The notes below the pieces were generated by a model that was given only the letters and a program-made list of their open reading frames with translations, did not search any database and was not told where the DNA came from. The translations under genes were made by a program, and so were the position numbers. Below are positions 6,546-41,693 of a DNA stretch of 64,000 bases, piece after piece; positions within the stretch are counted from its first letter, which is position 1; each line of letters starts with the position of its first letter. This stretch comes from an uncultured virus (IMG/VR IMGVR_UViG_3300020125_000260). Lineage: Duplodnaviria > Heunggongvirae > Uroviricota > Caudoviricetes. Location of the stretch: the IMG/VR virus record IMGVR_UViG_3300020125_000260; one strand, written 5' to 3'.

Positions 6546-6766
6546 TTGGCTACTCCGTTCTCCACCATCGCAGGCGGCGCCGGATTATGATATGCCACAC
6601 TCTTCTCATGGTCGGTCATCGTGACCCCAATCTGCGTGACTCGCAGAACCAGCACCGCGCCGCAACCGCCGCACTCGAACCGCCTTGCCCATTGTGACTG
6701 ACCCTCGGCTGACCATGTGGCCTCAGATGGACGTAACCAAATAGAGCTACACTTCGGACATGTCAT
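6542..6766 (-). CDS. Zinc-ribbon protein
   Basis: CPKC...CGGC. Confidence 0.55.
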   Translation of the reverse strand: MTCPKCSSIWLRPSEATWSAEGQSQWARRFECGGCGAVLVLRVTQIGVTMTDHEKSVAYHNPAPPAMVENGVAK

Positions 6767-9351: not shown

Positions 9352-9932
9352 CTTCCGAACCTCAATAGGTCAGCTTCCAGAATTGGTCTGTTGTCAATGC
9401 GTAATTCCTTTTCCCAGATGACGAGAGGACGCCAACCGCGGCTAAGATAATCATAATTCTCTCGGCGCACCGACGCTTGTGTGTGCCAGTACTTCCCATG
9501 AAGCAGAATCACACGCTTGCCGTATTTATCAATAAAATCTGGATTACGACGTGCTCCTGTAGCACAAGGGCCGATCCAGAAGGCTCCATTGCCTACATAG
9601 GTAAAAGGCAATTTCAGCCTCTCGATTATCTCAGCCAATTTACATTCAGCCTTGTTGGGAGCTACCTTGTTGGCTCCGTAGAACGAACGGGACTTTATCT
9701 TGCCTTCTCTCCAACTGCGTTTCATGCGCTCAGAGAAGATACCTTTAGACGCAGCGAGTGTTGCAACTTGTCGTGCTACCACTTCAGGGTCTTTCATGGG
9801 GTTGTTGGAACGCATTCGCTCAGCCGATCTAGCGCGCATCTCAGGAGTGCGAATGATAGGCTTGGGCATCAGACCTGCATCCCAACGAGCCTTCAGCTGT
9901 CGGCTAAGTTGCGCTCGTTGTGTGTCACTCAT
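9348..9932 (-). CDS. Free-standing homing-endonuclease-like protein (NUMOD3-like N-terminus + Vsr/DUF559-type PD-(D/E)XK domain)
   Basis: SNNPMKDPEV basic repeats; NPDF...VILLHGKYWH...GWRPLVIWEKE. Confidence 0.7.
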   Translation of the reverse strand: MSDTQRAQLSRQLKARWDAGLMPKPIIRTPEMRARSAERMRSNNPMKDPEVVARQVATLAASKGIFSERMKRSWREGKIKSRSFYGANKVAPNKAECKLAEIIERLKLPFTYVGNGAFWIGPCATGARRNPDFIDKYGKRVILLHGKYWHTQASVRRENYDYLSRGWRPLVIWEKELRIDNRPILEADLLRFGR

Positions 9933-11224: not shown

Positions 11225-11903
11225 GAAGCACCCCCTGTGGGATGTCCTGACTATACAACGTCGCCGCACCGGGGCACGGTTTGCCATCTGAGCTGGTGAC
11301 TCCGCAGTTGATCACCACCGCCGGTTCCAACACTCCCACACGACCGCCCACTTTGCGAATCCGCTGCGAGTAGTTCCAGTCTTCGGAGCCGTTCACCCTC
11401 GCCGCCGGGTCGAACTGGCCCAGCGCGTCCCATGTGCTCCAGTCCATCAGCCAGGAGAGCAAGCCGAGGGCTTCGACCTCATACCCAGCACCAGCAAATT
11501 GCGCGCCTCGCTGTTGGAACGGGTGACAATATCCACCGATAGCCATGAACTTATCCTGTCTGGCTATAGCCCAAGTCATTAGTAGCGTCTCATCCCACCC
11601 CGGTAGGAAGTAACAATCATTGTCACAAAGGTATAGATGGTCACCCCTCCCCCACTGCTCCGACTTCTTGATCCCGATGTTCCTCGCCAGGCCCGGCCCC
11701 AGCTTCGCGATGCGGCTATGCACTACGCGGATCGTCTGCGGGTACTGCTCCGCATACTCGTCCAGCATGTCGGCGGTCTCGGCTGCGGAGTAGTCGTCTA
11801 CAATCAGCAGGCGGTAGCTGGTGGAGGTGTGGCGCATGAACGAGGTGATGGCCTGCTCGGTCAGGCGGGGGCGGTTGTGGGCCAGCATCACACAGTTAAT
11901 CAT
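11217..11903 (-). CDS. Glycosyltransferase family 2
   Basis: LAHNRP, LIVDDYS, GPGLARNIG, LCDND, SEDWNY. Confidence 0.88.
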   Translation of the reverse strand: MINCVMLAHNRPRLTEQAITSFMRHTSTSYRLLIVDDYSAAETADMLDEYAEQYPQTIRVVHSRIAKLGPGLARNIGIKKSEQWGRGDHLYLCDNDCYFLPGWDETLLMTWAIARQDKFMAIGGYCHPFQQRGAQFAGAGYEVEALGLLSWLMDWSTWDALGQFDPAARVNGSEDWNYSQRIRKVGGRVGVLEPAVVINCGVTSSDGKPCPGAATLYSQDIPQGVLLE

Positions 11904-12831
11904 GCGCTGCTGCCTCCACGCGTACACTAAGGTGATCCTCTACAATCTCCGCGAGGCCAATGCGTGGCTCCCAGCCGAGGGCTTGAAATGCAGAATGGTC
12001 GTCCATGCTTATATTGCGCTCAGGAGTGTCCCGCCAAGTAGGATTGTTGAGCACCTCTCGACCATCTGAGTTCCACACGACTTCAATCTGATTAGGTGCG
12101 GTAATTACACGTTTGCGAAACATCTGTACCAACTTCCCAATAGTGATTCTGTTGTCGGGATTGAACACGCTCCACAGCCTCCGCTCCGGCCAGCGTTCCA
12201 CCAGTAGCACGACGAACCTCGCGAAGTCGCTCACATGGGTGAAATGCCGCACCTGCTCACCCATGCCGAACACGGTCAGCGGCTCACCCGCTAGCACCGC
12301 GTCCCGGAACCTCGCCATCACAAAGCCGCCGTCCGCGCGCTGGAGCCTGCCGGTCACGTTGTACGGGCGAATCACCCTCGCATCCACCATGGGATGCCCC
12401 AGCACCATCGCCTCGGAGGTCAGCTTCCCGAGAGAATACTGCGCCCGGATGTCGGTCTCGCCGCGATAGGTCAGCACCTCGCTCGACGAGAAGGTGATAA
12501 GCCTCGCACCAGTACGGGCTGCGAGGTCGAGCACCGCCTGCGTATCAGAGATAATCTGCCACGCGACCTGCGCCTCGGGCGTGAGCCGGGCGTGGCCGAC
12601 CGGAGAGGCGCAGTGGATGATGAGGTCGATGTGGCGATTTTCAAGAGCTATTTCAAACAGACCCAACTGAGTCACACGACAGGTGAACATCGGCATCGCA
12701 GGCAGATCATGTGGATCAACACAGTTATGTGATAGATCATCGTTACCAATAATTACATGACCGCCGATAGCGAGTTGCCTGGCGATTTCACTGCCGATCA
12801 GACCGCAGACTCCGGTGATTAGGATTCTCAT
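11896..12831 (-). CDS. NAD-dependent epimerase/dehydratase (extended SDR)
   Basis: ITGVCGLIG, FSSSEV, YSLGK (YxxxK), RPYNVTG, QVRHFTHVSD, LGWEP. Confidence 0.9.
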   Translation of the reverse strand: MRILITGVCGLIGSEIARQLAIGGHVIIGNDDLSHNCVDPHDLPAMPMFTCRVTQLGLFEIALENRHIDLIIHCASPVGHARLTPEAQVAWQIISDTQAVLDLAARTGARLITFSSSEVLTYRGETDIRAQYSLGKLTSEAMVLGHPMVDARVIRPYNVTGRLQRADGGFVMARFRDAVLAGEPLTVFGMGEQVRHFTHVSDFARFVVLLVERWPERRLWSVFNPDNRITIGKLVQMFRKRVITAPNQIEVVWNSDGREVLNNPTWRDTPERNISMDDHSAFQALGWEPRIGLAEIVEDHLSVRVEAAAHD

Positions 12832-13568
12832 TTGCACCTCCATGGCAGCACTCCGCGACCCATCTCATAGATCACCCGATGCGATTCCTCATGCACTTGG
12901 GCGTCGGTCTTACCCAGATGTTTCACCGACCACTCCTGATACGCTGGCAGGTTCGCGGTCTGGCCCGAGTAGTGTTGGCAATCTATCCCTACCAGCCGAA
13001 CGCTATGTCCTAGCTTGTGCGCCATGATGCAGGCCCAATAGTCATAACAATGAAACGGCAACTGCGCTACAGGCCATCCTCCAGCACGATCAAGAAGACT
13101 ACGCCTAACAACAAGAGCGAAGCCATCCAGAACAGAAACCTCTCGCGACCCTTCAAACCTTTCCCCATGACTCTCGGCGTCGGCAGTATTAGATAGATAA
13201 TCAAGACGGCGCAACTGAATAAGCCGATAAGGTGTCTTGTAGATGTCATCTTCTCCATGTCCTTTCGCGCCGCCGAAGCCCACCACTCCCACCTTCGGAT
13301 CGTCGAACTCCCGCAGCACGCGCGCGTCCCACCCCGGCTCGAAGATTTCACAATCGCTGTGAAGGAACGCTATCACCGGAGCAGTGGTGTGTTCGTAGAG
13401 CCATTGCAGGGAGCCAGTGACGCCTAGATTGTCGTCGGTGGTGTTCCTGCGAAATAATACTTCATTGTCCTGAGCGACTATGCTTGTGTGCGAGTTAACG
13501 CTACGCTGTATGACTTCAGACATTGGTACTAGAACACTTGTTGTTATAGCCAGTTGATGCGTGCTCAT
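12828..13568 (-). CDS. Glycosyltransferase family 2-like
   Basis: FLHSD, VGVVGFGG, VLDGFAL, FHCYD. Confidence 0.75.
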   Translation of the reverse strand: MSTHQLAITTSVLVPMSEVIQRSVNSHTSIVAQDNEVLFRRNTTDDNLGVTGSLQWLYEHTTAPVIAFLHSDCEIFEPGWDARVLREFDDPKVGVVGFGGAKGHGEDDIYKTPYRLIQLRRLDYLSNTADAESHGERFEGSREVSVLDGFALVVRRSLLDRAGGWPVAQLPFHCYDYWACIMAHKLGHSVRLVGIDCQHYSGQTANLPAYQEWSVKHLGKTDAQVHEESHRVIYEMGRGVLPWRCK

Positions 13569-14788
13569 AATCCATCCTCGAACCATTTCTCAAAGAGCGG
13601 CCAGAGGCCATTCCATGAAAGGTGCGCGACCGACGCTCGCAGGGCCTCGCGGTCTAACGGCACTAACTCCGTTAAATGTCTATTTGCGGCATCAACCCAA
13701 GATATCGGGCTGAACACTGGACGAAGTTGATTATGTAGACCATCAATACGCCACGACTCGGCAGGCACAAGATAATCATTCGCATGCCACGCATTGTCGG
13801 GCATACACTGCCGCAACACGTCCGCTCCACCCGCATAGTCCCCATGCAGCACCGGAGTCCCGCTCGCCAGACTCTCAAATATCGGATACCCGAATCCCTC
13901 CCCCAGCCCCGGATGCAGCGTCAGATCACTCGCTGCGTAGTGCCATGACAGCTCCTCCTGCGAGAGATCCATCGTCACCTTGGTTACTCCCGCGAGGCCG
14001 AAGTCGTAGAGCAGCGCGGGGATCGACCAGTGGCGTTCCAGCAGGTCGGTATGCCACCACAGTCGAAGCTCTCGATCCTTAGCGACCAGTTGCTGGCAGA
14101 CACTGGCCACGAGACCCCAGTCCTTGCGTGGCTGGTTCGTGCCGATGGCCCCGACCAGTTTCTGGCCCTCGTGCAGGAAGGGATATAATCGGGACTTCGC
14201 CTCGTCACGGTCGCGTAGTGGCCAGCGGGCGAGGTCTAAGCCATGAGGCAACCATGTGAGGTTGCGCCGGTCGCACTCCGCGTCACCCAGCGAGCGGCGA
14301 ATCACTCCCTCCGCCCACTTCGTATAGGCCAGCAGGCGTCGGTAGCCTCGCAGTGAGTCCGCAGCCATCGCACTCAGCCGATCCTGCGGCCCGGTAGCAT
14401 CGAGCGTCACGTATCCCCACAGGTCGAAGTGACCCTCCGAGATGAACTGCGCCGTCTCGGGGAACGTCCCGGCGAGGAGGTCGGGGCGCGACAGCCAGAG
14501 GCAGCGGGTTGGGTCCCAGATCGTGAACACCACCCCGCGCTCCTTCCCGGCGAAGTCCCTCCAGACCTTCGGGAGGTCAGCTTGCGCCCAGTCGTTCCCC
14601 GGGAGCGACCGGATGCAATACTGCGGGAACGGCAGATGCCGGCTGCCCACCGCGCCACGGCCCAGTGTGGCCACGCGGAACCGCGGATTGCGTGAGAGCT
14701 GCCCGGCGATGTCGCGGGTGATGCGGGAGAGACCACCGGCGGTATCGGGAGAGTCGCCGAGGATCAGGATTGGAGTGGGACGGCTCAT
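13565..14788 (-). CDS. Glycosyltransferase family 4 (GT-B)
   Basis: GDSP...GGL, LPHGLD, NQPRKD, GEGFGYPIFESLASGTP. Confidence 0.88.
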   Translation of the reverse strand: MSRPTPILILGDSPDTAGGLSRITRDIAGQLSRNPRFRVATLGRGAVGSRHLPFPQYCIRSLPGNDWAQADLPKVWRDFAGKERGVVFTIWDPTRCLWLSRPDLLAGTFPETAQFISEGHFDLWGYVTLDATGPQDRLSAMAADSLRGYRRLLAYTKWAEGVIRRSLGDAECDRRNLTWLPHGLDLARWPLRDRDEAKSRLYPFLHEGQKLVGAIGTNQPRKDWGLVASVCQQLVAKDRELRLWWHTDLLERHWSIPALLYDFGLAGVTKVTMDLSQEELSWHYAASDLTLHPGLGEGFGYPIFESLASGTPVLHGDYAGGADVLRQCMPDNAWHANDYLVPAESWRIDGLHNQLRPVFSPISWVDAANRHLTELVPLDREALRASVAHLSWNGLWPLFEKWFEDGL

Positions 14789-15821: not shown

Positions 15822-16130
15822 TTATGCTGGCAGGGCATCAGCGACTGGCTCCAGATCATCGCCCAACCTGATCGCGTCCATGTTCAGGCCCACGCGGTAG
15901 CCCTCGATGAACACCGTTACCCTCGGCCCCATCCATTCACTCAGGTAGGTGGACTTTATTCGTGCGGTCTGGCCCGTGAGCGGCTTTCGGCTGCGACCAT
16001 AGGGCTGGCCATTGTAGTTGCTGACAATTGTCACCTGTTGATCCTTTAGCAGCCAGTCGATCTCGGCCTTCAGCACACGAATGGCTTCGAGACGCTTTTC
16101 AACTTCTGCTCTTGTGTGACCGTCGTTCAT
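15822..16130 (-). CDS. Hypothetical protein
   Basis: GGAGG RBS, ATGA overlap with polymerase stop. Confidence 0.5.
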   Translation of the reverse strand: MNDGHTRAEVEKRLEAIRVLKAEIDWLLKDQQVTIVSNYNGQPYGRSRKPLTGQTARIKSTYLSEWMGPRVTVFIEGYRVGLNMDAIRLGDDLEPVADALPA

Positions 16131-19100
16131 ATAGCTACCTCCTGAGTGGCCTGGTTCCCTGCTGCCATTGTAGCCAGCGGTGTCAATGTTGACGGGAGAG
16201 TTACCTCCTGCATCTGGTTCCAACGCTTGCCTTGCGACGCCTCGACTCCCAGCCAGAGTCCCGGCATGACTTTCGACGGGGCCATCATCACCGGAACCAC
16301 TTCTCGAATCGCATCCTCAGCCAACTCCTCGCGGTGATGCAGCATAAGGGAATCATGTACCATATTAAAAAGTCCGAACTTATCGTCCAACCCCTGACGA
16401 TACAGTTCCTTCATCACCTCCCGCATGTGAGCGTGCGCCGTGTTGGCCAACCGATAGGCGATTGCTTCCTCCGACTGGTCTCCGTGATCCCACCCCGGCC
16501 CGCCCTTCATTTTGTTGTTCCATACCTTGGCCTCGTAGAACCTACGCATGTGACCGAAGGGCGTTCCCAGCTTTTGCTTGTGATGAGCTTCCATCACCTG
16601 TTCGTCCTGATACTTGAACACCTTATCAAATAACATCTCGCACACCGATAACACATCTGCCGCTACCTGCATGCCAGTTTGCATTCCGCGAACAAGGTTG
16701 TTGCTACACATAGGGCAAAGTTTCAACCCGCGAATCCCCGGAACCTTTGTCGTGCCTTTGCACTCGGGACACTGACGCGGCGGGAATTGCTCCATGTAAC
16801 GCTCGTATAGCCCCTTAGCCTTAAGACCATTTCCGATTCCGAGGATCGCATGCTTCGCCTGATCGTCACGTATGCGCTTGCGCTCCGGGTCGGACTTCAA
16901 CCATTTGAATCGTGCTAGAAGCTGCTCATCGGATTCCTTGAGTATCTCGCGTACGTCCCAGAGCTGGAGGAAATGGCCTGCGACGGCTGAATGAATGTCC
17001 AACCTCCCGAGGCGCGTGTAGTTATCGTCGCCTGCTAATAGGCCAAGTGTGATGACGTGGCAGGATTTAAAATCTACCTCTGTTAGAATGTAGCCCTCGT
17101 CCGCGCAGATCATTCCCCGGATGGCCTTGGCTAGCGCGGGCGTGGGCTTCAACTTCGGGAAGTTGGTCGTGTTGGGGTTGCGCGCGCTGAGTTGCGCTAT
17201 CGCAGTTTGGAAAGTGAACGTGGTATGCACTCTGCCATCCGCCCCTGGCTTGAACCCGTCGATGTAGGTCCCTCGGAGCTTCGTTAGGCCGCGATAATTT
17301 ATTACATCGTTATAGAACCTATCGCCGGTCTTCACCGCCAGGCGCTGGAGTTCCTTCGCTGCGGTGGTGTCCTTCTGGTTGCCCTCGTCGTCTTCCTCTT
17401 TAGATTTAGGAACCTTATGACCCTTGGCCTTCATGTACTCGATGAGCATGTTCCGGGAGTTGGGATTGAACTCGGGGATGTAGCACCAGCGTATGGCGCG
17501 AATGGTGACGGTATTGAGGTCTATATCCGCCGTGACCTCATCTACTTCGCGCTGGCCATAGCGATACCACTTCCCGGCCTTGATCCTGCCGTCTTCCTGC
17601 GGCTTGCCGCATTTCCCACAGGTGAGAGCGTCCATCTTGTTCTCACGGCTACATTTACACTTCCACTTGTCAGGTTCCTTGAACAGCCGGCTCCATTCTG
17701 ACTCGGGGAGCTTCTTCAATTCCGGGGGGAATGTCTTGTAGGGGTCCAGCTTCTTCGCTGACTCGGGGAATAACGGCATCAACTTCTCTGCGATCTCCAC
17801 TGCCGCCAGCCGGAACTCCTCACCGAGCGCGATGCGCTTGGCGTCGTCGATAGGCACCCCGCGATCCTCCATCGCGGCCAGCACCGGGCGGACTTCCCGC
17901 TCCTGTCCGGTGTAGCCGAGGGTCAGGGAGTAGGCGTCGCCTTCGCCCCAGAGGTTGTCCTTCTTCAACACCTGAGTCAGATACTCGCCCAGTTGCAGAT
18001 CGCTATCCACATCACAGCAACCATAGAACGGTTCGTGCTCCAGCGTGTGCATATGCTTCCACGGGAAGGGGAAGTTTATGAACGAGCACGCGAATTGCAG
18101 ATGCGCCGGGAGATCGGGCTGCCAGTGGTGAAACATGTCCAAGGTGTCATATACACGCTCGCGGGGCTGATATACCCACCCGTCGCGCGCCGAGGCTGCA
18201 CGGAGCACCTTGTGGTCGAAGTTGTCCCACTGGTGGCCGTACATCTTGTTGCGAAGGTGCAGGATATCTATCGCTACCGAGCGAAACGGCTCCTCGAACG
18301 GCACCGCGATCCCGGTGTATTTCTGGTAGCTGAATTGAATCTGGCGGATGTGAGTGTCGGAGAACCCCTCGCGAGCGTCCTCATCCATCGATTTGGACTC
18401 AGGAGTTTCTATGTCCGCCGAGAACGGCAGCCCCGAGTTCTCTTTCAGGTAGTAATAGAAGCTCCGCAGGGTGTCAAGGTTGGGCCTAGTGAGATACTGC
18501 AACCTCCCACCCTCAGGTGTGCCCCACGTCGCTGGGTCGCCGGGATCTACACACCACATGTAGCTGCGATCCCTCCCGCTGGCGATGGCCAGCCCCCGCT
18601 GAATGATCCGCGAGAACACGCCCTGGTGCGAGGCTTTGCCGCGGCGGAGGTAGGACGGGTGGAAGTTGGCCAGCACGGGAACGGGTTGATGGGGGTCTTG
18701 CGTGATCTGGCCACACCCCCCACTCCCTGCCGATATCACTTCAACTTGCTGTGTCGGCGTTCGTTGCCCAGACGCAACATTCAATGTTGCACGCGCTTCC
18801 TGACGATATCTCTCACCTAGCGCATTACCTCCCGCCAGCGGCAGGCAGTACCCCGCCAGATGCGTCACCCCTCTGGCCTCGCCCGCCTCCCCGGTCAGCT
18901 CCCTGAGCGCGACTCCGCCGAGCGAGACGATGCAGCGCGGGCGGTAGTCGGCGATGGCCTGATCGAGGTTGGGCCGGCAGTGGCGGAGGGCGGCGTACTC
19001 GAACGGGCTGCCTTCGAGCCAGTTATGTCGTGGCCTGCACCTAACGCAGTTTGTAATCGCAAACTGCTTCCGGTCGAGGCCCATCCTGCGAAGGCAACGC

Positions 19101-19285
19101 TCCAACACCGCGCCGCTGGGGGCATATGGCCTCAGCGGTAGCTGATCTCGCTGCTCCATCTCTCCACTGGCCTCGGCCACCAGCATGGTTCCATTGGCGC
19201 AGGTTCCTTCGACAGCGGAGAAGTCATTGCCGTGGTCGTGCAGGGCGCATCCCACACACGATGATGGCTTCGAACGATGGCTCAC
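16127..19285 (-). CDS. Family A DNA polymerase with N-terminal family-4 uracil-DNA-glycosylase-like domain and 3'-5' exonuclease
   Basis: UDG-like CVGC..AEASG..TNCVRCRP..HPSY; ExoI DIET, ExoII NFD, ExoIII YGCCD; Pol motifs A (DFKSCH), B (AKHAILG) and C (VHDS); GTG start with AGGAG RBS. Confidence 0.92.
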   Translation of the reverse strand: MSHRSKPSSCVGCALHDHGNDFSAVEGTCANGTMLVAEASGEMEQRDQLPLRPYAPSGAVLERCLRRMGLDRKQFAITNCVRCRPRHNWLEGSPFEYAALRHCRPNLDQAIADYRPRCIVSLGGVALRELTGEAGEARGVTHLAGYCLPLAGGNALGERYRQEARATLNVASGQRTPTQQVEVISAGSGGCGQITQDPHQPVPVLANFHPSYLRRGKASHQGVFSRIIQRGLAIASGRDRSYMWCVDPGDPATWGTPEGGRLQYLTRPNLDTLRSFYYYLKENSGLPFSADIETPESKSMDEDAREGFSDTHIRQIQFSYQKYTGIAVPFEEPFRSVAIDILHLRNKMYGHQWDNFDHKVLRAASARDGWVYQPRERVYDTLDMFHHWQPDLPAHLQFACSFINFPFPWKHMHTLEHEPFYGCCDVDSDLQLGEYLTQVLKKDNLWGEGDAYSLTLGYTGQEREVRPVLAAMEDRGVPIDDAKRIALGEEFRLAAVEIAEKLMPLFPESAKKLDPYKTFPPELKKLPESEWSRLFKEPDKWKCKCSRENKMDALTCGKCGKPQEDGRIKAGKWYRYGQREVDEVTADIDLNTVTIRAIRWCYIPEFNPNSRNMLIEYMKAKGHKVPKSKEEDDEGNQKDTTAAKELQRLAVKTGDRFYNDVINYRGLTKLRGTYIDGFKPGADGRVHTTFTFQTAIAQLSARNPNTTNFPKLKPTPALAKAIRGMICADEGYILTEVDFKSCHVITLGLLAGDDNYTRLGRLDIHSAVAGHFLQLWDVREILKESDEQLLARFKWLKSDPERKRIRDDQAKHAILGIGNGLKAKGLYERYMEQFPPRQCPECKGTTKVPGIRGLKLCPMCSNNLVRGMQTGMQVAADVLSVCEMLFDKVFKYQDEQVMEAHHKQKLGTPFGHMRRFYEAKVWNNKMKGGPGWDHGDQSEEAIAYRLANTAHAHMREVMKELYRQGLDDKFGLFNMVHDSLMLHHREELAEDAIREVVPVMMAPSKVMPGLWLGVEASQGKRWNQMQEVTLPSTLTPLATMAAGNQATQEVAI

Positions 19286-20244
19286 GGCTTCTCCTGCGCC
19301 ACGGGGCCCAGCGCGGCCCGTGGATGTCTTGGCATTTCGCACCAGAACTGGATAGGAAAATTAACCTTGACGTTTTCACATCCCCATGTTTGCCCTGATT
19401 CAAGCAGGAAGAACGGATGTAATGCTGAATAGAACATTTGGTCGATATAGCCGCCGACAAGATAGGTTCCACCTACCTTTGGCAATGCGACCGTAACGTC
19501 AATCCAGTCCCGCTCTCTGCGTAGCACGTCCAGCTCCCCCACGGCTTTGTTGTATTCAGGCCAGTAGTCGTGAGCGCGCCCCTCCAGGCTGCGGGATAGG
19601 ACAACTCTCGCCGCATCCTCAACCATACCCTTGTCCGCTGGAGTGCTCGAATTGCTAGCCCATTCTTCCGCGATCTCCTGCGCGATCCGCTCCAGCCCTG
19701 ACGGTTCGCAGTCAAGAATCTGTTGCAGGAACTTCGTCGCCAATTCGAACCACTTGCTGACTTTCTCTTGGCTGTCCTTCGATAGGGCTTTCCACTCCTG
19801 GTCTGGTAAAAGGTGAGCCTCGAAATCCCCCACAGGCTTCGCAGTAGGGTGGGTGGCCTTGTTCATTGAGGTGAGAACATTTTCCGCAGTACCACATAGA
19901 GCCTCCCGTAATGGTGAAAGTGTCCGCTCCAGCCCTGCCGGTGCCGCGCCGGGGGCCGGGCCGAATATCGCTATCGTGTCTGGGCAAACCGTGCAGTATT
20001 GGCGATAGTGCTGAGTACCATAGATTTTCTTGCCCCATTTCAGCGTATGGCTCTCATCGTTTGGACATTGCCAATACTTCAGCCGATTACCCTGCGGGGC
20101 TGGGTCTTGGGGAGATACTGCCGCTACGCCGAGTTCGAGGATTTCCTTCGACAACCTGACGGCCGCTTGGTACTCCCATGATTCGGGCTTGCAGTCGCCG
20201 AATATACGGTCTACCGCTTCCATCACTTTCGCTGTGTCCGTCAT
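19282..20244 (-). CDS. Mosaic hypothetical protein with C-terminal DUF551-like domain
   Basis: WIDVTVALP...FWCEMP. Confidence 0.55.
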   Translation of the reverse strand: MTDTAKVMEAVDRIFGDCKPESWEYQAAVRLSKEILELGVAAVSPQDPAPQGNRLKYWQCPNDESHTLKWGKKIYGTQHYRQYCTVCPDTIAIFGPAPGAAPAGLERTLSPLREALCGTAENVLTSMNKATHPTAKPVGDFEAHLLPDQEWKALSKDSQEKVSKWFELATKFLQQILDCEPSGLERIAQEIAEEWASNSSTPADKGMVEDAARVVLSRSLEGRAHDYWPEYNKAVGELDVLRRERDWIDVTVALPKVGGTYLVGGYIDQMFYSALHPFFLLESGQTWGCENVKVNFPIQFWCEMPRHPRAALGPVAQEKP

Positions 20245-21182: not shown

Positions 21183-22550
21183 CTATAACCACTCGACAAT
21201 CTTCGGGTCGAAGTTGCAGTGCTCGATGAATTTCTCCCGCTGGCCAACCAGCCTGAGTCCTTCCAGCGTTCTACACCGTGACATTGCGACGTAGAGCATC
21301 CCATAGCTCTTGAAGAAATGTTTGCGGAAGTCTATTTGAACGGCATCTAAAGTCAGTGACTGACTTTTATGCACCGACGTTGCCGTGGCGAGGCGCACCG
21401 GCCAGCGTTCTATCTGGCCCATGACCCAGCGACGCACGCGGCTGCGATAATGCTGGCGCGGAATCCAGCCACCATCATCGTCCTGCTTGGGAACCTTGTA
21501 ACTACCAGTGTACTTGGCGGGTCGTTCATCGTATTCCACGCCCATCACCTGACGATGGATATATACTTCCTTGCCGGTCCTGCGGAGCTTCACGCAGATG
21601 AACGGCTCTCCGAGATGGGGATTTATATTCACTTCATGCGCTACCACTTCGCCGCAGTCGCCGTTCACGTATTCAAAATCCGGGGCATTGACTAGGAGCA
21701 TCACATATGCCCCGATCTTCAGTTCCACCGATGGAGGAATGCCCCAGACCATCTTCCCCCGCTTCAGCTTCAGCTCCCATTCGCCGCGCTCCTGCCCCCA
21801 GCGGCGATTATCTGCGCGGAACCTCTCGCCCTTGACCTGATCCAGCGCGTAGTTGTTATAAGTGTCCACGTCATCGTTGTAGGGCAGGATGGTGGTTCCC
21901 CTGAAATCCGGGTCGAGCGCGGTCTCGAACCTCGCGCCGAGCGAGGTGAGGACTTCCACCGCTGCTGCGCCCTCGCCGCGACGCACGAGATTGAGCGCTT
22001 CGAGAAAGCGGGCGTCGCCCTGGCGCCAGACCTTGGCCAGCCGCGTGGTGTTCTCGGCGAAGCGGCGCCAGCAGGAGGCTTCGAATGCCCACTTCGCTTT
22101 GATCGGCGCAAGCTGCGCAAAATCTCCCACGAGGGTGATACCCATTGGCGTCGCGACATCCACATAGCGGTTCGCGTCCTCCACCCCGCGATACCAGATG
22201 TCCAGCTGTTCCGCATCGGCCATCGAGACCTCATCGACAATCAGGCGGCGGTACTGCTTGGCTAGGGAGTGGAGCACTCGGCTGAGGACTCCGGTGAGGA
22301 AGTGGTCGCGTAGGCAGCGGGTGTCGGAGTACTTCAAGAGACTGTTTACGGTGATGGCTCCGAGGTTGACGCCGGCGATTCCGGTGACGGCGGACAACAC
22401 TCCATAGGCAGGGTCTTCAGCAACCGCCTTGACGCAGTTGTATGTCTTCCCTGTCCCCGCCGGGCCAGTTATGAACTCGCACGGCGGTGGCTGCTCCGCC
22501 CGCGCGACCTGCTCGGTGGCGAGGCCTTCTTCGATGTCGTAGTCGTTCAC
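21183..22550 (-). CDS. Pif1/RecD-like SF1B helicase
   Basis: GPAGTGKT, IVDEVSM, GDFAQLAP, VWRQ, SVHKSQSLTL, YVAMSR. Confidence 0.92.
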   Translation of the reverse strand: MNDYDIEEGLATEQVARAEQPPPCEFITGPAGTGKTYNCVKAVAEDPAYGVLSAVTGIAGVNLGAITVNSLLKYSDTRCLRDHFLTGVLSRVLHSLAKQYRRLIVDEVSMADAEQLDIWYRGVEDANRYVDVATPMGITLVGDFAQLAPIKAKWAFEASCWRRFAENTTRLAKVWRQGDARFLEALNLVRRGEGAAAVEVLTSLGARFETALDPDFRGTTILPYNDDVDTYNNYALDQVKGERFRADNRRWGQERGEWELKLKRGKMVWGIPPSVELKIGAYVMLLVNAPDFEYVNGDCGEVVAHEVNINPHLGEPFICVKLRRTGKEVYIHRQVMGVEYDERPAKYTGSYKVPKQDDDGGWIPRQHYRSRVRRWVMGQIERWPVRLATATSVHKSQSLTLDAVQIDFRKHFFKSYGMLYVAMSRCRTLEGLRLVGQREKFIEHCNFDPKIVEWL

Positions 22551-25080: not shown

Positions 25081-25959
25081 CTATTTCTTCCCCTGCGAGT
25101 CCAGCGCAAAGAACTGCACCGCCATCGCCCGCGCCTTGGTCGTCCCGTGCGCGCGGTTCACCAGGCACGGCAGGTCGGGCGAGTACTGCCCCGGCTTGCC
25201 CGGCAGCGATGGGAACCGCTGCATGCCGTCGGTGGACTTCGGATACGCCGTCCCGCCGGCCTTCGCAGCCTGCCCACACACGTCGCAGCTGGCTGACCAT
25301 TCACTCCGGCAGAGGATCTCCGGCTCACCCGCGAGGAACTTAATGAAAATCTCCATCAGCGACTTGTGCCCGTAAGTCTGATTAAGCACCAGCCAGGGCG
25401 AACCGTCGGGACGCTTCCCCGCGAGCGTGAGGATCGTCATGATCTTGGACAATCCCTTCTGCGAGCTCCGCGTGTCCGTCCACTTGTACGGCACCTGAAG
25501 GAACACACCGTCCAGCTCCGGGAACCGCGGGTCGATGATCTGCACGTCCATGATAGTCTTGGCGAACGTGCCAGTGACGTTGCCGTTACGGTCCTTGGCC
25601 ACGGCCGGCACCCACTGGGCGACTTCCCCGCCCGCAAGGTACTGCGAGATGTCCACGTTCGCGCCAACGTCCTCCTGTTTCACGCCGCGGAGCTTCAGCT
25701 TCACGCGATAGATCCCGTCCGGCGCCGGTGGCGGGGCTGCGAATGCGTCACCCTCCTTGGCGGTGAGCAATTCGGATGTGAGCGCCGGGTCGTTGATGTC
25801 GGGCAGCGGCTCGGGGACGTGCTGCGTCGAGTTGTCTAGCGGCGGTGCAGCGGCTACGCCATTCGCGGCGGTTGCTGGCTGGTTGGTGGTGTTGCCAAAG
25901 GGTGAGGCCCCGGCGTTCGGCTGGCCTCCGGTTGCGAATGGATTGGTCGTTGATGACAT
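25081..25959 (-). CDS. Putative single-stranded DNA-binding protein (DUF669-like)
   Basis: PAPDGIYRVKL pattern, position after the Sak4-like ATPase; GAGGAG RBS; CxxC..C..H near the C-terminus. Confidence 0.5.
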   Translation of the reverse strand: MSSTTNPFATGGQPNAGASPFGNTTNQPATAANGVAAAPPLDNSTQHVPEPLPDINDPALTSELLTAKEGDAFAAPPPAPDGIYRVKLKLRGVKQEDVGANVDISQYLAGGEVAQWVPAVAKDRNGNVTGTFAKTIMDVQIIDPRFPELDGVFLQVPYKWTDTRSSQKGLSKIMTILTLAGKRPDGSPWLVLNQTYGHKSLMEIFIKFLAGEPEILCRSEWSASCDVCGQAAKAGGTAYPKSTDGMQRFPSLPGKPGQYSPDLPCLVNRAHGTTKARAMAVQFFALDSQGKK

Positions 25960-26008
25960 GATGTCTCCTCGTTTCAATGATTCCGCTGATGACCCGCAGC
26001 GGCGGGCG

Positions 26009-26146
26009 TTATCTTCCGTGGCAGTCAGCACAAGGCTTGGTCTGCCCACAGGACTCACACTTGCCATAGCTCATGCCGTAGGGAATCTCCTCCAGTTGCT
26101 TGTTCTTGCAGTCCGTTTTGGCATGGCACTCAGTACATAAGAACAT
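26009..26146 (-). CDS. 45-aa Cys-rich zinc-finger protein (not in ORF track)
   Basis: GGAGG RBS; MFLCTECHAKTDC...CESCGQTKPCADCHGR*. Confidence 0.55.
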   Translation of the reverse strand: MFLCTECHAKTDCKNKQLEEIPYGMSYGKCESCGQTKPCADCHGR

Positions 26147-26205: not shown

Positions 26206-26496
26206 TTATACCGGACAGTCCTTCAGCAGCTTCTCACACTGTTGTACTATCCGCAGTGCCTTCTCCGGTGGAGCGAAGTACACCGCTTCCTTGGCCTTGG
26301 TAATCAGGGCCTCATTGCGCTTCTTGGCCTTGCACGAGCGCAGGCTCTCAGCCTTGTCCCAGCGTTCGATGGTTTTGCGCGCACGTTTCACTTCCGAAGG
26401 CTCAGGCGTGGGCTTGTAACCATTCATCTGGTAGATACTCGGCACGCGGCCCAGCAGATACCGCTGTTGATCTGTTAGTTTCTTGCTATCTTTCAT
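26206..26496 (-). CDS. Hypothetical protein
   Basis: GGAGG RBS, coupled. Confidence 0.5.
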   Translation of the reverse strand: MKDSKKLTDQQRYLLGRVPSIYQMNGYKPTPEPSEVKRARKTIERWDKAESLRSCKAKKRNEALITKAKEAVYFAPPEKALRIVQQCEKLLKDCPV

Positions 26497-27542
26497 GATT
26501 TCCTCCCCAAGAGATGGTCGGCGCGATTACGCCAGTTGCTAAGGCTCTCGCCCCGGCTCGCGTCCGCCGCCAGCCTGTCCACCGCCTCCATGTACAAATC
26601 AATCCCGTGCTCGGTCGTCGGGGTGAAGAAGCCGCCGGGAAATTCCTTCTCCAGCTCCGCAATCTTCTCCGGCGCGCACCTCGGCTTCGCTGGGAACATG
26701 ATCCCCGTCGCCGGGTCCGGGTGCTTGCGATAGAACATGCGCACCTGCACGTCGATCACCGTCTGCGGAACCTGCTTCGAGGGATCGGCGGGGTCAGCCA
26801 CCTGAATCACTCTCGGTACTGCGTAGTCCTGCCCGTGGATGAGATCGCCGAACCAGCTACCGCACTGCGCGGTGGCCTTCTTCCCCGGCAGCGCAGGACC
26901 ATATATAGTGCTGCGGTCGTCGTCCTCGGTCTTCGATTCCAGCGCCGTGTACATCACCGCATGGCAGGGCAGCGAGTTGAAGTTGTTGACCAGGCCGTAG
27001 AGCGTGTTCTGCGCGAAGCCGAAGTCGCCGCGAGTGTTGCTGCCGAAGGTCTCCACTACCGGCGCGCCGTTGACCACTACCCCCTGCGTGAAGCTCATGT
27101 TGTTGCCGTTGCGGTTCTCCCCGCCGACCGCTTGGCCCTTGTCCGGGAGGTAGCGCATGATCACTTGGCCGATGGAGGTCAGGCCCTCGACTGCGATCCC
27201 GCCGATCTCATTCCAGTTGATCGGAACCATTGACGCCGAGTTGAAGTCCTGACTCCCGGCGAACAGCCCAGCTACCGCCTCGTTGATCGCGTCCACGTTC
27301 TTCGGCCAGTAGCCCTGCGAGACCTTCCTCAGCAGCGACAGCGGCGTGTTGGCCGTCTCGCAGCGCCACGGGATGATCATCCCCGCGATGATCTCCGGCT
27401 CGCACGGTGCCCAGCCGCCGCCGTCGGTCGAGAGCAGAAGGGTGGCCTTGCCGGTGACCTCAGCTATGCGTCTTGCAAAAAACTTAATTTGCGTGGACTT
27501 CCAGTTGCCCGTCGATGAATATAGACAGATGGACTTAGCCAT
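26493..27542 (-). CDS. Sak4/AAA_24-like recombination ATPase
   Basis: Variant Walker A LYSSTGNWKST, LSTDGG, Walker B IAVEGLTS, YGPALPGK, AKPR. Confidence 0.65.
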   Translation of the reverse strand: MAKSICLYSSTGNWKSTQIKFFARRIAEVTGKATLLLSTDGGGWAPCEPEIIAGMIIPWRCETANTPLSLLRKVSQGYWPKNVDAINEAVAGLFAGSQDFNSASMVPINWNEIGGIAVEGLTSIGQVIMRYLPDKGQAVGGENRNGNNMSFTQGVVVNGAPVVETFGSNTRGDFGFAQNTLYGLVNNFNSLPCHAVMYTALESKTEDDDRSTIYGPALPGKKATAQCGSWFGDLIHGQDYAVPRVIQVADPADPSKQVPQTVIDVQVRMFYRKHPDPATGIMFPAKPRCAPEKIAELEKEFPGGFFTPTTEHGIDLYMEAVDRLAADASRGESLSNWRNRADHLLGRKS

Positions 27543-27858
27543 TAGACTTCCCATCCTTCTCCAGCCTCTTTAACAGCGGAGACTTGGTAAATATCCTGTC
27601 AATGGCGGCAACTGCCTCTGTTGTATCTGCTGCTTTATTGCCTTGCAGCCATCTCCTATAATCACCAAGAATATCGTCTGTCGTTGAGTTGGGAGCCAAT
27701 GTGAACTTATAGCCGTTAAATTCAAAGAAAATATTCAATCCTGTGGCTTTGGCCGCATGCAATCCCGCATTCACAGCAGTCTCGACGTTATGACCCAATA
27801 CACACTTCACATTAAGTGTGAGGCTCGACAATATATATTCAGCCACGCGACCCTCCAA
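27535..27858 (-). CDS. Hypothetical protein
   Basis: ORF in operon. Confidence 0.5.
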   Translation of the reverse strand: MEGRVAEYILSSLTLNVKCVLGHNVETAVNAGLHAAKATGLNIFFEFNGYKFTLAPNSTTDDILGDYRRWLQGNKAADTTEAVAAIDRIFTKSPLLKRLEKDGKSNG

Positions 27859-28516: not shown

Positions 28517-29176
28517 TTAGCTAGATATTGTGTTCCCGCCCGCTGCTACCACCAGCGATTGACTGTACTGCTCCGCGATGTAGCGGGAATAGGCTGGAGG
28601 GATGGCCTGCCTAGCCTCAGTTGTGGTCATCCAAGGACAACCCATCGCGTCACGGAATGCAGCTATATTGCTTCCGGTAGTGAATCCTATATGTGCCAGT
28701 CCATCAAGATAATCCTGCGAGGTCTTGCCTCTCACCTTAGGCTGACGCTGATGCTTCTTATGGGCCAACGGCAAAATTGGGAATGACGACTCAAAATTCC
28801 TGTGTCTTAAGACTCTCAAACCAAAAGACAAACCACACAACGTAACGGGGTTTAGGAGTGGCGCCTCAGGAACGTTCTCAATAGTCCAAGCCACGCCTGA
28901 AGCTGCCAACCTGCTTCTTGTTGTATTTATCAGTTGTGGATGATCTTTCCTCATAACATTTGCACGTTGCATTGATGACCATGCCTGACACGGAGGACTG
29001 GCCCAGATGAAATCGAACCCCTCCAAGGGATAGGTCATCGCATCCGCCTGTACGAATGTAAATGGATACCTCGGCTGCGGCTTGATATCCACTCCCACGA
29101 TCTCAGCATCCGGCCACGCCTGGTGCAGCCCCATCGCCGCACCGCCACCGCCGCAGAACAGATCCAGCACCCTCAC
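28517..29176 (-). CDS. DNA cytosine-C5 methyltransferase (short phage type)
   Basis: LDLFCGGGG, ASPPCQ, IENV, RHRNFE; GTG start coupled. Confidence 0.88.
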   Translation of the reverse strand: MRVLDLFCGGGGAAMGLHQAWPDAEIVGVDIKPQPRYPFTFVQADAMTYPLEGFDFIWASPPCQAWSSMQRANVMRKDHPQLINTTRSRLAASGVAWTIENVPEAPLLNPVTLCGLSFGLRVLRHRNFESSFPILPLAHKKHQRQPKVRGKTSQDYLDGLAHIGFTTGSNIAAFRDAMGCPWMTTTEARQAIPPAYSRYIAEQYSQSLVVAAGGNTISS

Positions 29177-30864
29177 TTTATATTCACCAATTCCTGCGGA
29201 TGATTCGGCACACGCTTCTTGAACATTCCCGCTCCCACCGTCAGCGGATCGGCCTTCATCTCCGCGCCGGCGTAACAAATCTTAACCGCCCAACATTCCG
29301 ACGGGTAGGAACACGCGGAACGATTCATTGGAAAGTGGACGTTCATCAGCGACCTGCGCTCGCCGGGATCGGTAGCAGCATTGACTTGCGCGACCGCCTC
29401 CACCACCCTCCGCTCCTGCGCCTCGGTCGATTCCACCCAGTCGCGCAGGTCATCTTCTGATCTCCAGACCGTCACCGGCGGCACGAACACCTGGTCCAGC
29501 GGGTGCTCCTTCGTCACCCCCATCGCCTGCGCCGGGGACTTCCAGCCTAGCGTGCGAGGTGCGAGGCCCACCGTCGAGTCCTCGCCCGACATCAGCAGCT
29601 CGGAGGCGTCCAGCTTATCTATCCAGTCATGGATGCCACTCGTGGACAGGTTATTACCTACCTGAGGAAGGTAATCATTATCGACCCAAGTTGGGCATGA
29701 CTTCCAATTTTGCCAGCTCAGTTTGCTGTTCTTATCGTCCTCAACCCGATAATAGTCCCATGACCAACACACATCCCCCACTCGATAGCCCCCCTCCCCC
29801 TTCTTCGGCACGCTGGTCGCCACGTACTGCCGCACCAGATGCGAGTGCTGTGTGTACGCGGTGATGCCCAGCCTCGCGGACAGCTCCCGGTCCTCCGCGC
29901 GATAGCCCTTCAGCAGGAACTCGTAGCGGATGGCGTGGATGCGAGGCGGAGCTGGAAGATTATGAAGAAAATCCCATATCCGTTCCTCTGCTTGAGTCCT
30001 CGGCATAGCGCCATCGCGTATGTGCTCCCACCACTCTCCCAGCCGCCGCTCCACCTCAACACCTTCCGACAACCCCTGCATGTCATGCTCAATGTCCCTC
30101 GCCTTCCGTACGTCCCAGGTGGCGGTGGTCTTGTAGCTCAGCAGGTAGAGTTCGTTCGACTGCCGCTCGCGGAGTAGTGCATCGGGGCGGGACATGAACC
30201 AGAGTTCCCAGCGGTCACGATCAAAGTAATGAGGATTATCCACAGGCTTAGGACCATAGGTGTGTGCAGGCTCCCACTCGCTCAGCTTCCACTCCCCCTC
30301 CCGCTCCACCTCCAGCACTTCGAACTGCTCCAGCAGCGGGCGCAACCGCCGTCTCGCATACGCGCGCACCATCCCCTCCACCAGCGCAGCCTGCTCCGCC
30401 GCGAGGTAGCGGTCGAACTCACCCCGCGCGACCGCTGGATCCCTGGCCAGCCCCGCGACCGCCGCTTCGTCCATCCCCAGCTCCCGCGCCTGCGCCACCA
30501 CCTGCGACTGGAACACGTCCGCCGCCGGCGTGAGCTGCATCGCCGCGGACTCAGTGGCGTCGAGGTCGAGGGCGGCAGAGAATTGCTGGAACTCGGCGAG
30601 TGCGGTAGCTACAGCCTTGTCTTCAATCTCACGCCATACGGCCAGCGGAACCTGATCGACATCACTATATTTGTAGACTGCCTGCTGGCCATCCCATACG
30701 AGAACAGCTTGCCCAGCGTGTTCGGCGATACCCACCGCGAGAGGTAATGGCATTCTCGATGGAACTATGCCCGTCCCCGCTTCGTTGTATTCATACCACC
30801 GCCTGCGCTTGCAGCGGTCGGCGGTCACGCATCGTGACCGGTCAATATAAATTCGTGTAGTCAT
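29173..30864 (-). CDS. PD-(D/E)XK (RecB/Cas4-like) exonuclease
   Basis: N-terminal C (ADRCKRR), SRPDAL..LSYKT, C-terminal C-x5-C-x5-C. Confidence 0.65.
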   Translation of the reverse strand: MTTRIYIDRSRCVTADRCKRRRWYEYNEAGTGIVPSRMPLPLAVGIAEHAGQAVLVWDGQQAVYKYSDVDQVPLAVWREIEDKAVATALAEFQQFSAALDLDATESAAMQLTPAADVFQSQVVAQARELGMDEAAVAGLARDPAVARGEFDRYLAAEQAALVEGMVRAYARRRLRPLLEQFEVLEVEREGEWKLSEWEPAHTYGPKPVDNPHYFDRDRWELWFMSRPDALLRERQSNELYLLSYKTTATWDVRKARDIEHDMQGLSEGVEVERRLGEWWEHIRDGAMPRTQAEERIWDFLHNLPAPPRIHAIRYEFLLKGYRAEDRELSARLGITAYTQHSHLVRQYVATSVPKKGEGGYRVGDVCWSWDYYRVEDDKNSKLSWQNWKSCPTWVDNDYLPQVGNNLSTSGIHDWIDKLDASELLMSGEDSTVGLAPRTLGWKSPAQAMGVTKEHPLDQVFVPPVTVWRSEDDLRDWVESTEAQERRVVEAVAQVNAATDPGERRSLMNVHFPMNRSACSYPSECWAVKICYAGAEMKADPLTVGAGMFKKRVPNHPQELVNIK

Positions 30865-32703: not shown

Positions 32704-32926
32704 ATCGCTCACCTTATTTATCATTGCCGCTCGGCAGCACTCGCATACCGGAGGATATCCTGTATCTGCCTGTCCATGGCTTCCAGCACATCAATCAGCT
32801 CCTGGAAGAACTCCAACGCCTCTTGCGTGCAGCCGGTCAGGGCTCCGTATTTGTGTTTCAACATCGTGGTTCTCATAGTTCACCTCTCTACTGGCGGGTG
32901 GATTCTGGGGGGTTTGGTCACTGGCT

Positions 32927-41686: not shown

Positions 41687-41693
41687 TTCAGCC

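Follow-up and report, generated by a model that had tools for sequence, protein, structure and literature searches.

Analysis of a 64,000-nt stretch of the virus record IMGVR_UViG_3300020125_000260 (hereafter the window; the virus contig on record has 65,157 bases), which comes from an uncultured soil-type phage, revealed the presence of a gene encoding a fusion that joins a uracil-DNA glycosylase (UDG), a 3'-5' exonuclease and a family A DNA polymerase (PolA) in which several pocket residues of Pol I-type enzymes are replaced. The replacements are ancient, fixed and coupled across a large clade of homologs, and are not drift, and the UDG-PolA is the sole polymerase of the phage. The reading favored here, to which we give a probability of roughly 0.55, is that the protein represents the sole replicative, proofreading polymerase of a large UDG-PolA clade in which neutral residues, Gln, His and Asn, have taken the place of the ion-pair cluster formed by R668, E710 and Q849 (numbering of Escherichia coli Pol I).

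Regarding gene structure, the polymerase is contained in a minus-strand open reading frame (ORF) at 16127..19342. The database form of the protein (P0002, 1052 aa, 100% identical), whose numbering is used here for the window protein, places the start at a GTG at 19285 that overlaps the stop codon of the upstream ORF as GTGA, giving the gene listed in Table 1. A sequence-only reading made earlier had assigned the polymerase to 16127-17230; the polymerase motifs are indeed located there, but this span corresponds to the last ~368 codons only, the C-terminal third of a longer gene, and neither the N-terminal UDG domain nor two Cys-rich inserts featured in that reading. Its description of an intact gene with an intact proofreading domain holds, with one full ORF and all five DEDDy residues of the exonuclease present. 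Pfam matches were obtained to PF00476, the polymerase domain of family A (E 1.2e-24), and in the N-terminal part to PF03167, a UDG domain (E 3.7e-14); in PHROGs the protein matched phrog_17, DNA polymerase (E 6.8e-48). An AlphaFold2 (AF2) model made from 41 relatives, with a mean predicted local distance difference test score (pLDDT) of 83.9 and a predicted template modeling score (pTM) of 0.81, had the Klenow, Bst and Taq large fragments as its top Foldseek matches (template modeling score, TM, by target 0.73-0.79), the first of them being Klenow 1kfs (E 4.7e-23, TM by target 0.73). The Klenow-type arrangement of exonuclease, thumb, palm and fingers is thus present according to the model, Foldseek and PF00476, and the fusion of PF03167 with PF00476 was detected in 104 of the best 120 homologs.

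The UDG domain has motif A GEASG containing E38, the residue N79, motif B HPS containing H209, and the cysteines C10, C13, C83 and C103. In the alignment with 4zbx, E38, N79 and H209 match the Glu of GEAPG, the Asn of TN and the His of HP(S/A), and TN..CRP is also aligned. These residues are conserved in the relatives (E38 in 172/178, N79 in 184/187, H209 in 194/206, C83 in 183/191 and C103 in 193/194), and the domain is predicted to be active; its loop at aa 154-199 is disordered in the AF2 model (pLDDT < 50). Regarding the exonuclease domain, DIET is paired by hhalign with DTET of E. coli, PHROG 403 (exonuclease subunit) is matched at E 5e-4, and the five DEDDy residues are conserved in 204/210 to 220/221 sequences, that is, in at least 97% of the relatives. 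The polymerase domain has two inserts without counterpart in E. coli Pol I according to hhalign. The thumb insert, variable in length across the family, forms DSSP strands at 540-604 in the model, while the fingers insert, with the consensus CxxCxGxG...CxxCxGxG, is a subclade trait: of the 99 family members that contain it, 96 also show Asn at the position of Y766. The protein ends ~25 aa past the palm in a tail with pLDDT < 50. A separate 264-aa ORF elsewhere in the window has a DnaJ-type match of the same motif type as the fingers insert, below cut-off (Table 1).

Table 1. Positions of the polymerase gene, its domains and motifs, and of other genes in the window.
Feature	Position	Strand	Basis or remarks
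UDG-exonuclease-PolA gene	16127..19285	minus	1052 codons + stop; Pfam, PHROG, AF2, Foldseek
Family-4 UDG domain, aa ~7-240	18566..19267	minus	Profile against PDB 4zbx, E 1e-18
3'-5' exonuclease domain, aa ~262-445	17951..18502	minus	DEDDy residues D291, E293, D357, Y421, D425
Polymerase domain (thumb, palm, fingers), aa ~455-1030	16196..17923	minus	Taq alignments, hhalign, Foldseek
Beta-rich thumb insert, aa ~506-606	17468..17770	minus	CxC...CxxC at aa 543-559
Fingers insert, DnaJ-like double CxxCxGxG zinc finger, aa 836-869	16679..16780	minus	Right behind the O/O1 helices
TGR-motif region TAIAQLSARNPN	17171..17206	minus	Q698 at the R668 position
Motif A LTEVDFKSCHVITLGLL	17036..17086	minus	Catalytic D738; H743 at E710; I745 at R712
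Motif B / O helix RDDQAKHAILGIGNGL	16823..16870	minus	R806, K811 (=K758), L815 (=F762), N819 (=Y766)
Motif 6 DQSEEAIAYRLANTAHA	16430..16480	minus	A943 (=N845), A947 (=Q849), invariant N948
Motif C LFNMVHDSLML	16340..16372	minus	H977, catalytic D978, S979 at the E883 position
Dda-like superfamily 1B (SF1B) helicase	21183..22550	minus	PHROG 325 E 2.7e-47; Pfam AAA_30/PIF1; 26/29 loci, 9/10 genomes
328-aa OB-fold-like protein	25081..26067	minus	AF2 pLDDT 73.3; 25/29 loci, 9/10 genomes
Sak4-like single-stranded DNA annealing ATPase	26493..27554	minus	PHROG 124 E 3.8e-10; 23/29 loci, 9/10 genomes
563-aa PD-(D/E)XK nuclease	29173..30864	minus	Conserved C18, C518, C524, C530; 16/29 loci, 9/10 genomes
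Glycan cluster	5796-14788	minus	Three GT2-type and two GT1/GT4-type glycosyltransferases, B12/radical S-adenosylmethionine (SAM) protein, NAD-dependent epimerase, two to three SAM methyltransferases
DNA methyltransferase	28517-29278		phrog_363, E 7e-33
PAPS-reductase-like gene	31984-32724		phrog_424, E 1e-30
264-aa ORF, DnaJ-type CxxCxGxG	41562-42356		PF00684, E 5e-6, below cut-off
GDP-mannose-dehydratase-like second gene	55830-56882		Within the virion module
Two adjacent paralogous SU10-type adaptor genes	59800-61229		PF24175

The equivalences between the active-site residues of the window protein and those of canonical PolAs were taken from three agreeing sources, namely phmmer/hmmsearch against Taq, an hhalign comparison between the family profile (41 sequences) and Pol I of E. 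coli K-12 (probability 98.2%, E 4.4e-14, 340 columns), and a MAFFT alignment that included Pol I of E. coli, T7 DNA polymerase and the polymerases of the Thermus phages phiFa and P23-45, N4 and MW202455 (Table 2). The sequence-only reading had listed R668, E710, R712, F762, Y766, N845 and Q849 as changed, and every one of these was recovered by all three methods; the residues it considered kept, D705, D882, K758 and the histidine, likewise have their counterparts in D738, D978, K811 and H765/H977. Beyond that list, E883 is replaced by S979, and R841 pairs with Glu or falls opposite a gap. Two invariant residues adjoin canonical positions, the Asn N948 one residue past that of Q849 and the Arg R806 one residue ahead of that of R754. 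Of the residues characteristic of family A, the catalytic Asp, His-Asp and Lys are therefore present while those at R668, E710, Y766, N845, Q849 and E883 are not. The proposal that the whole fidelity network had been replaced is correct in that multiple residues changed, but goes too far, since K758, H734, H881 and the Arg beside R754 are kept and the amide side chains of Q698 and N948 persist at the sites where R668 and Q849 function. The AF2 model agrees with the assignments in its secondary structure: a strand at 732-739 ending at D738 is followed by a helix from 742, the O helix spans 800-818, and H977-D978 lie at the turn of the hairpin formed by 972-985.

Table 2. Active-site positions of E. 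coli Pol I, their counterparts in the window protein and the residues found at the same positions in the family alignment.
E. coli Pol I	Window protein	State	Family alignment
R668	Q698	changed	Gln 248/258, Arg 4
D705	D738	kept	Asp 259/260
E710 (steric gate, A2)	H743	changed	His 254/260, Glu 1
R712	I745	changed	
H734	H765	kept	His 256/258
K758	K811	kept	Lys 247/252
F762 (B3)	L815	changed	Leu 221/252, His 16
Y766 (B4)	N819	changed	Asn 140, Phe 89, Leu 13, Tyr 4 of 252
R841			Glu 231/248
N845	A943	changed	Ala or Ser 244/248
Q849	A947	changed	Ala 162, Ser 46, Thr 15, Gln 16 of 248
G850	N948		Asn 208/248
H881	H977	kept	His 248/248
D882	D978	kept	Asp 248/248
E883	S979	changed	Ser 178, Ala 50, Glu 9, Asp 7 of 248

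Investigation of the wider family showed that the replacements are not restricted to the window. A word-indexed search with the polymerase half of the protein returned 271 relatives, the best 120 of them at 48-85% identity, and HMMER, run exhaustively against the representatives of 1.84 billion clusters (50% identity), returned 3228 matches at E <= 0.001 and 702 at 1e-10. At E <= 1e-30 there were matches to 252 clusters, the best 150 of which (32-71% identity) are all in-family. The counts in Table 2 were obtained from 265 retrieved relatives (32-85% identity) aligned to the family hidden Markov model (HMM). Close and distant homologs, down to 32% identity, have the same replacements, and decay or drift was rejected on this basis; canonical residues in close homologs, which would have spoken for drift according to the sequence-only reading, were not what the search returned, and the substitutions define a conserved clade across the 265 relatives.

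The gene is not uniform in its layout among the relatives. In two of them (L032, 9575-11215 and 12679-14526; L033, 9899-11062 and 11624-13207) the polymerase is present as two frames, UDG and exonuclease followed by polymerase, 0.5-1.4 kb apart, which could represent a split gene or an inserted element. Some members are 250-350 aa longer, with inserts that break the profile match (L005, 9998-13780; L027, 9920-14164; P0011; P0026), and inteins are likely in the polymerase of some members, because two listed homologs contain the Hint/intein Pfam domains PF07591 and PF14890.

A FastTree phylogeny was calculated for 150 family rows and six canonical outgroups; 240 of the 265 relatives had passed 85% coverage, and all from P0122 upward together with every fourth of P0002-P0121 were included. 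Rooted on the canonical PolAs, the tree has an outgroup split with a support of 98 and P0246 as the first branch inside the family. P0246 is the sole member with Glu at the 710 position and also has Arg at the 668 position and Tyr at the 766 position, so that all three are canonical in this one sequence while Gln and His are both near-fixed elsewhere, in keeping with the coordinated replacement suggested from the window alone. Deep branches have Phe or Tyr at the Y766 position, and Asn is found in the window's part of the tree. The order of substitution events suggested by the tree is a lead rather than a result.

No other polymerase family was detected in Pfam and PHROGs searches of 74 and 49 window ORFs, nor was a recognizable primase, a ligase or PolX, and tblastn of the N4 primase gp43 against the window gave no match at E < 1 (best E 2.4), which bears out the earlier remark that no primase is seen in the window. 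Among 23 related genomes, of which 22 reach a completeness of 90% or more, searches for family B polymerase (PolB), Prim-Pol, the DnaG core and Toprim_2 were negative in every case (0/23 each). The thymidylate synthase/hydroxymethylase domain PF00303 was likewise found in 0/23 related genomes and in none of the window ORFs, ThyX not having been searched for. Comparison of the family profile by hhalign gave probabilities of 99.6% for MW202455 (E 1.9e-24, 692 columns) and 98.2% for E. coli Pol I, as against 0.8% for T7 RNA polymerase; an RNA-polymerase-like reading was rejected on this value, and the profiles indicate a DNA polymerase rather than an RNA polymerase.

UDG-PolA fusions are known from N4-like, SPO1-like and SP15-like phages (PMC10201439; PMC13697223; the papers cited here by PMC number were available in part, and what is taken from them refers to those parts). 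Among the SPO1-like and unclassified UDG-PolAs (Czernecki et al., 2023; PMC10201439), the enzyme of the uncultured spring-water phage MW202455 is by profile the closest one with a canonical pocket. It has the same order of UDG, exonuclease and polymerase and the same motif C, HDS, and the SPO1-like group retains the catalytic Glu, Asn and His of the UDG, as does the window clade, in which they are predicted to be of the active type. However, MW202455 keeps R668, E710, Y766, N845 and Q849 where the window clade has Q/H/N(F)/A/A, and its polymerase gene lies among thymidylate-synthase-type genes, whereas the window clade is without PF00303; a genome-encoded dUMP/dCMP hydroxymethylase or thymidylate synthase homolog, as in SPO1-like phages, was accordingly not found in the PF00303 search. 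The N4-like enzymes (cluster 17) share with the window clade an N-terminal family-4 UDG fold fused to exonuclease and polymerase domains and a motif C (HDA) that lacks the Glu, and the N4 replication module of Dda-type helicase, UDG-polymerase, exonuclease, primase, Sak4 and SSB (a protein that binds single-stranded DNA) resembles that of the window except for the primase, gp43. Nevertheless, N4 keeps R/E/Y/N/Q and its hhalign probability with the window family is 93.6%, and N4-like enzymes have lost the catalytic residues of the UDG and have Phe at B3 (PMC10201439), while the window clade keeps the former and has Leu at the latter.

The SP15-like polymerases of YerA41 and phiLo (Missoury et al., 2026; PMC13697223) have a fused active-type UDG and large inserts like the window protein, and the phiLo UDG site, E53/N177/H178, corresponds in kind to the Glu/Asn/His of the window UDG. 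They differ by description in having an E710-type gate and an O-helix Phe (His and Leu in the window clade). A C-terminal domain of ~80 aa and Inserts 1 and 2 are further traits of the group; the window protein continues for ~25 aa past the palm and has its own inserts. SP15-like phages are described with PolX, a ligase and glycosylated thymine (PMC13697223), whereas ligase and PolX matches are missing from the window ORFs. This particular window has a glycan-related theme nearby in common with them, but glycan genes are not clade-wide. The Thermus phages phiFa and P23-45 gave the best annotated tblastn matches to the polymerase domain, which does not imply SP15-like membership. Klenow, Taq and Bst have the fold, the DEDDy exonuclease, the two catalytic Asp and the residues K758, H734 and H881 in common with the window protein, but differ at R668, E710, R712, F762, Y766, R841, N845, Q849 and E883 and are without the UDG and the two Cys-rich inserts. 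The DpoZ enzymes of 2-aminoadenine phages (clusters 18 and 19) have Phe at Y766 (B4), with Leu at B3 in the phiVC8-like ones, and these two residues recur in deep branches of the window clade; a change of the steric gate or of the TGR arginine is not reported for DpoZ in the part of PMC10201439 that was available, while both are changed in the window clade, where a purZ-type gene was not searched for. The CCPol-MP/PolA-SSB primases (Bebel et al., 2020; Rice, 2023) belong to mobile elements that pair a family A polymerase with a small OB-fold protein, contain a helicase and have no classical primase, like the window module with its OB-fold-like neighbor. CCPol is, however, truncated N-terminally, without an exonuclease domain, and keeps E710 and F762 (PMC7581432), whereas the exonuclease and UDG domains of the window protein are complete.

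Thus, in the reading favored here, a single protein would join template-uracil surveillance by the family-4 UDG, proofreading by the exonuclease and Pol I-type polymerization. Catalysis would follow the usual two-metal reaction on D738 and D978, with the triphosphate held by K811, H765 and R806. In Pol I, the charged cluster of R668, E710, Q849 and D882 inspects the sugar of the nucleotide coming in and the minor groove of the base pair formed last. The Arg/Glu pair has been exchanged in the clade for the neutral pair Gln698/His743, and motif 6 has small residues at 845 and 849 with the fixed Asn948 adjoining; at the Y766 position, deep branches have Phe and the branch of the window has Asn. 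The ring of His743 under the sugar may act as the steric gate against the 2'-OH, and Gln698 and Asn948 may donate hydrogen bonds to the minor groove. Aromatic gates against the 2'-OH occur in other polymerase families. The enzyme would remain a DNA-templated, proofreading replicase with a presumed preference for deoxyribonucleoside triphosphates (dNTPs). The counterparts in Bst of Pol I R668, E710, Q849 and D882 lie jointly in electrostatic interaction (PMC10520511). The swap of the Arg/Glu ion pair for Gln/His, with motif 6 remodeled around it, offers the simplest account of the coupled change.

Several points weigh against this reading. Single changes of Klenow at R668, E710, Y766, N845 or Q849 lower activity or fidelity (PMC10520511), and normal function of the altered enzyme is therefore an assumption drawn from conservation and from its being the sole polymerase. 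The register of N845 and Q849 comes from sequence and sequence-profile alignment alone, and a shift by one residue would put N948 at Q849; the placement of His743, Gln698 and Asn948 relative to the nucleotide is likewise deduced from alignment and secondary structure, and the catalytic and pocket roles in clade members are predicted. The family alignment was made to an HMM built from the same family, so that the few exceptions may be misalignments, and the phylogeny is a quick FastTree analysis with distant outgroups, two of them on long branches. Finally, the third carboxylate, E883, has been lost too, a loss shared by N4 (HDA) and MW202455 (HDS) while their other residues stay canonical.

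Regarding the genomic surroundings, the window is a phage genome containing genes for a major head protein, two SU10-type adaptor proteins, Dda-like and UvrD-like helicases, a Sak4-like protein, HNH nucleases and a DNA methyltransferase. IMG/VR yielded 29 related loci, mostly on contigs of 55-65 kb, many with direct terminal repeats; neighbor counts refer to 10 kb around the polymerase in these 29 loci and shared genes to ten relatives fetched whole. The polymerase is common to the window and 10/10 of these relatives, and the genes for the Dda-like helicase, the 328-aa protein, the Sak4-like protein and the 563-aa nuclease to 9/10 each, followed by the major head protein (8/10), a 425-aa protein (7/10), a 648-aa protein (6/10) and several virion proteins (5/10). 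The shared core thus consists of replication/recombination and structural genes and includes no nucleotide-modification gene. The 328-aa protein, with a disordered N-terminus of ~110 aa and an OB-fold-like body, has the SSB-like PrgE as its best VIA match (Z 6.6, 123 aligned) and weak RPA/PrgE/gene V rows in Foldseek (E ~0.5), and is probably the SSB of the module, judging by its model. Its disordered N-terminus contains an invariant DP.L motif near aa 93-96, which could be a docking peptide. For the 563-aa family, PF12705 was detected in 6/13 members (best E 4.5e-7), while the window's own copy had no match and a PDB profile search with it found none. The arrangement of one N-terminal and three C-terminal Cys residues resembles that of iron-sulfur 'staple' nucleases such as AddB and Cas4.

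The paired SU10-type adaptor genes, common to 5/10 relatives, point by sequence to a podovirus-like virion. Two genes of the early region are each shared with a single one of the ten relatives, the 3'-phosphoadenosine-5'-phosphosulfate (PAPS)-reductase-like gene with G001 and the DNA methyltransferase gene with G002. The 320-aa ORF upstream of the polymerase gave DUF551-like leads, all under the bar, and had no homolog in the 29 loci. The glycan cluster adjoins the polymerase in 1/29 loci and among the ten whole relatives was found in the closest one (G001), with parts in G015; GT2 genes were detected in 9/23 related genomes, in 6 of these above the cut-off. A link between polymerase and glycan cluster, whose co-occurrence the sequence-only reading had put forward for checking, was rejected on these counts: the altered polymerase is universal in the clade and the glycan cluster is variable cargo of one small branch. 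The GDP-mannose-dehydratase-like second gene lies apart from this cluster, in the virion module. Regarding the host, hints are given by fragments of metagenome-assembled genomes (MAGs) named Terracidiphilus, Solirubrobacterales and Acidobacteriota. On a 2.5 Mb contig of an Acidobacteriota MAG (L037, 9926-10612) there is an isolated exonuclease-domain-like piece of ~200 aa with 52% identity, and the 10 kb around it contain no other phage gene of the clade. This piece, a weak host hint, could be what is left of a phage gene or a fragment that has been domesticated.

Among the alternatives, the pocket could be adapted to a non-standard substrate, be it a dNTP with a modified base, a nucleotide with an altered sugar or a template that is itself modified, in a phage whose DNA is chemically unusual. 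Other UDG-PolA groups do occur in modified-thymine phages, namely SPO1, SP-10, SP-15 and YerA41 (PMC10201439; PMC13697223), and MW202455, the nearest annotated relative, adjoins genes annotated as thymidylate synthases and 'pyrimidine hmase synthase'. The altered residues are contacts to the sugar and the minor groove, and the window itself has glycosyltransferase, radical SAM/B12, methyltransferase, DNA methyltransferase and PAPS-reductase-like genes. However, the UDG-PolAs of modified-DNA phages, MW202455 and N4, are canonical in the MAFFT alignment, and the description of phiLo and YerA41 gives their enzymes an E710-type gate as well as the Phe (PMC13697223); no nucleotide-modification gene is common to the clade, PF00303 included, and the glycan cluster was found in 1/29 loci. 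Many 55-65 kb clade contigs were assembled from ordinary metagenomes, whereas commercial polymerases failed to amplify the DNA of YerA41 and RP13 (PMC13697223); this is a weak argument, directed against heavy modification only. Taken together, an adaptation of this kind appears unlikely. Somewhat less likely again is a loosening of the minor-groove check that would let the enzyme copy past abasic sites left by its own UDG, with proofreading and recombination offsetting the lost accuracy. The conserved catalytic-type residues E38, N79 and H209 of the UDG and the conserved module with its Sak4-like annealing protein and PD-(D/E)XK nuclease fit this explanation, as do the SP15-like enzymes, in which uracil in the template is excised by the fused UDG in front of the polymerase, which then bypasses the abasic site (PMC13697223), and the reduced fidelity of Klenow mutants of R668, N845 and E710 (PMC10520511). 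Yet phiLo and YerA41 bypass abasic sites with a canonical pocket (PMC13697223), so that bypass does not need the change, no ligase or PolX is present among the window ORFs to complete the repair, and great inaccuracy is incompatible with being the only replicase of a 65 kb genome.

The lack of a recognizable primase, in the window as in the 23 related genomes, raises the question of whether the polymerase supplies this function and starts de novo with ribonucleoside triphosphates (rNTPs) or dNTPs, perhaps via the OB-fold protein or the zinc-finger inserts. Zinc-binding modules are typical of primases, and the OB-fold-like protein is conserved with the polymerase in nine of the ten whole genomes. 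The PolA-type CCPol forms with a small OB-fold protein a dNTP-using primase (PMC7581432; PMC10061031), but CCPol lacks the exonuclease domains and keeps E710 and F762 (PMC7581432), so that its priming does not depend on changes of this kind. The family profile is moreover unlike T7 RNA polymerase, divergent primases can escape Pfam, many primase-less phages use host primase, transcripts or recombination, for which the module has recombination proteins, and the fingers zinc insert is present in one subclade only while a recognizable primase is missing clade-wide. We hold this explanation to be improbable, and far more so the possibility that the polymerase domain is catalytically dead and serves as a scaffold for UDG and exonuclease only. 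Nine or so of the changed residues are ones whose single mutation cripples Klenow (PMC10520511); nevertheless K758, H734, H881 and the two catalytic Asp hardly vary at all, the residues that replace the canonical ones have likewise become fixed over the range of 32-85% identity, and no other polymerase was found in the window or the 23 relatives. The preferred reading remains that of a functional, proofreading replicase with a neutral Gln/His/Asn set in its pocket. A wider version of the priming idea is an outside chance, if a less slender one than the form just weighed: the polymerase would itself start DNA chains, alone or with the OB-fold protein and zinc-finger inserts, or would accept ribonucleotides or non-standard nucleotides at the first steps, as a Pol I-type replicase-primase.

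Regarding novelty, no member of the clade was found among 50,697 GenBank phage records, in which the best match covers 22% of the protein, and no paper on the clade was found in a library short of most subscription journals. Nor did the literature yield a family A clade in which the TGR arginine is replaced by Gln and the steric-gate glutamate by His, the logos and supplements of PMC10201439 not being covered. The classification of 2023 into 19 clusters describes the key motif residues as strictly conserved, with variation of TGR at the Thr only, and Leu at B3 and Phe at B4 as known variants (PMC10201439, in the part available). The UDG-PolA architecture is thus known, while the clade with the Gln/His pocket is large and undescribed.

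R668, E710, Y766, N845 and Q849 are the textbook residues for sugar and minor-groove checking in Pol I-type enzymes. A very large natural clade, of at least 252 sequence clusters at E <= 1e-30, whose enzyme is the sole polymerase of complete 50-65 kb phages, has swapped them jointly while keeping catalysis-related residues and proofreading. The clade is a natural experiment on rebuilding the network of fidelity and sugar selection, and is a source of candidate enzymes for biotechnology whose substrate tolerance may be new. It also makes the start of replication in primase-less phages testable; if the polymerase does start chains itself, it would be a natural Pol I-type replicase-primase, and the changes in the pocket would alter what the enzyme can do.

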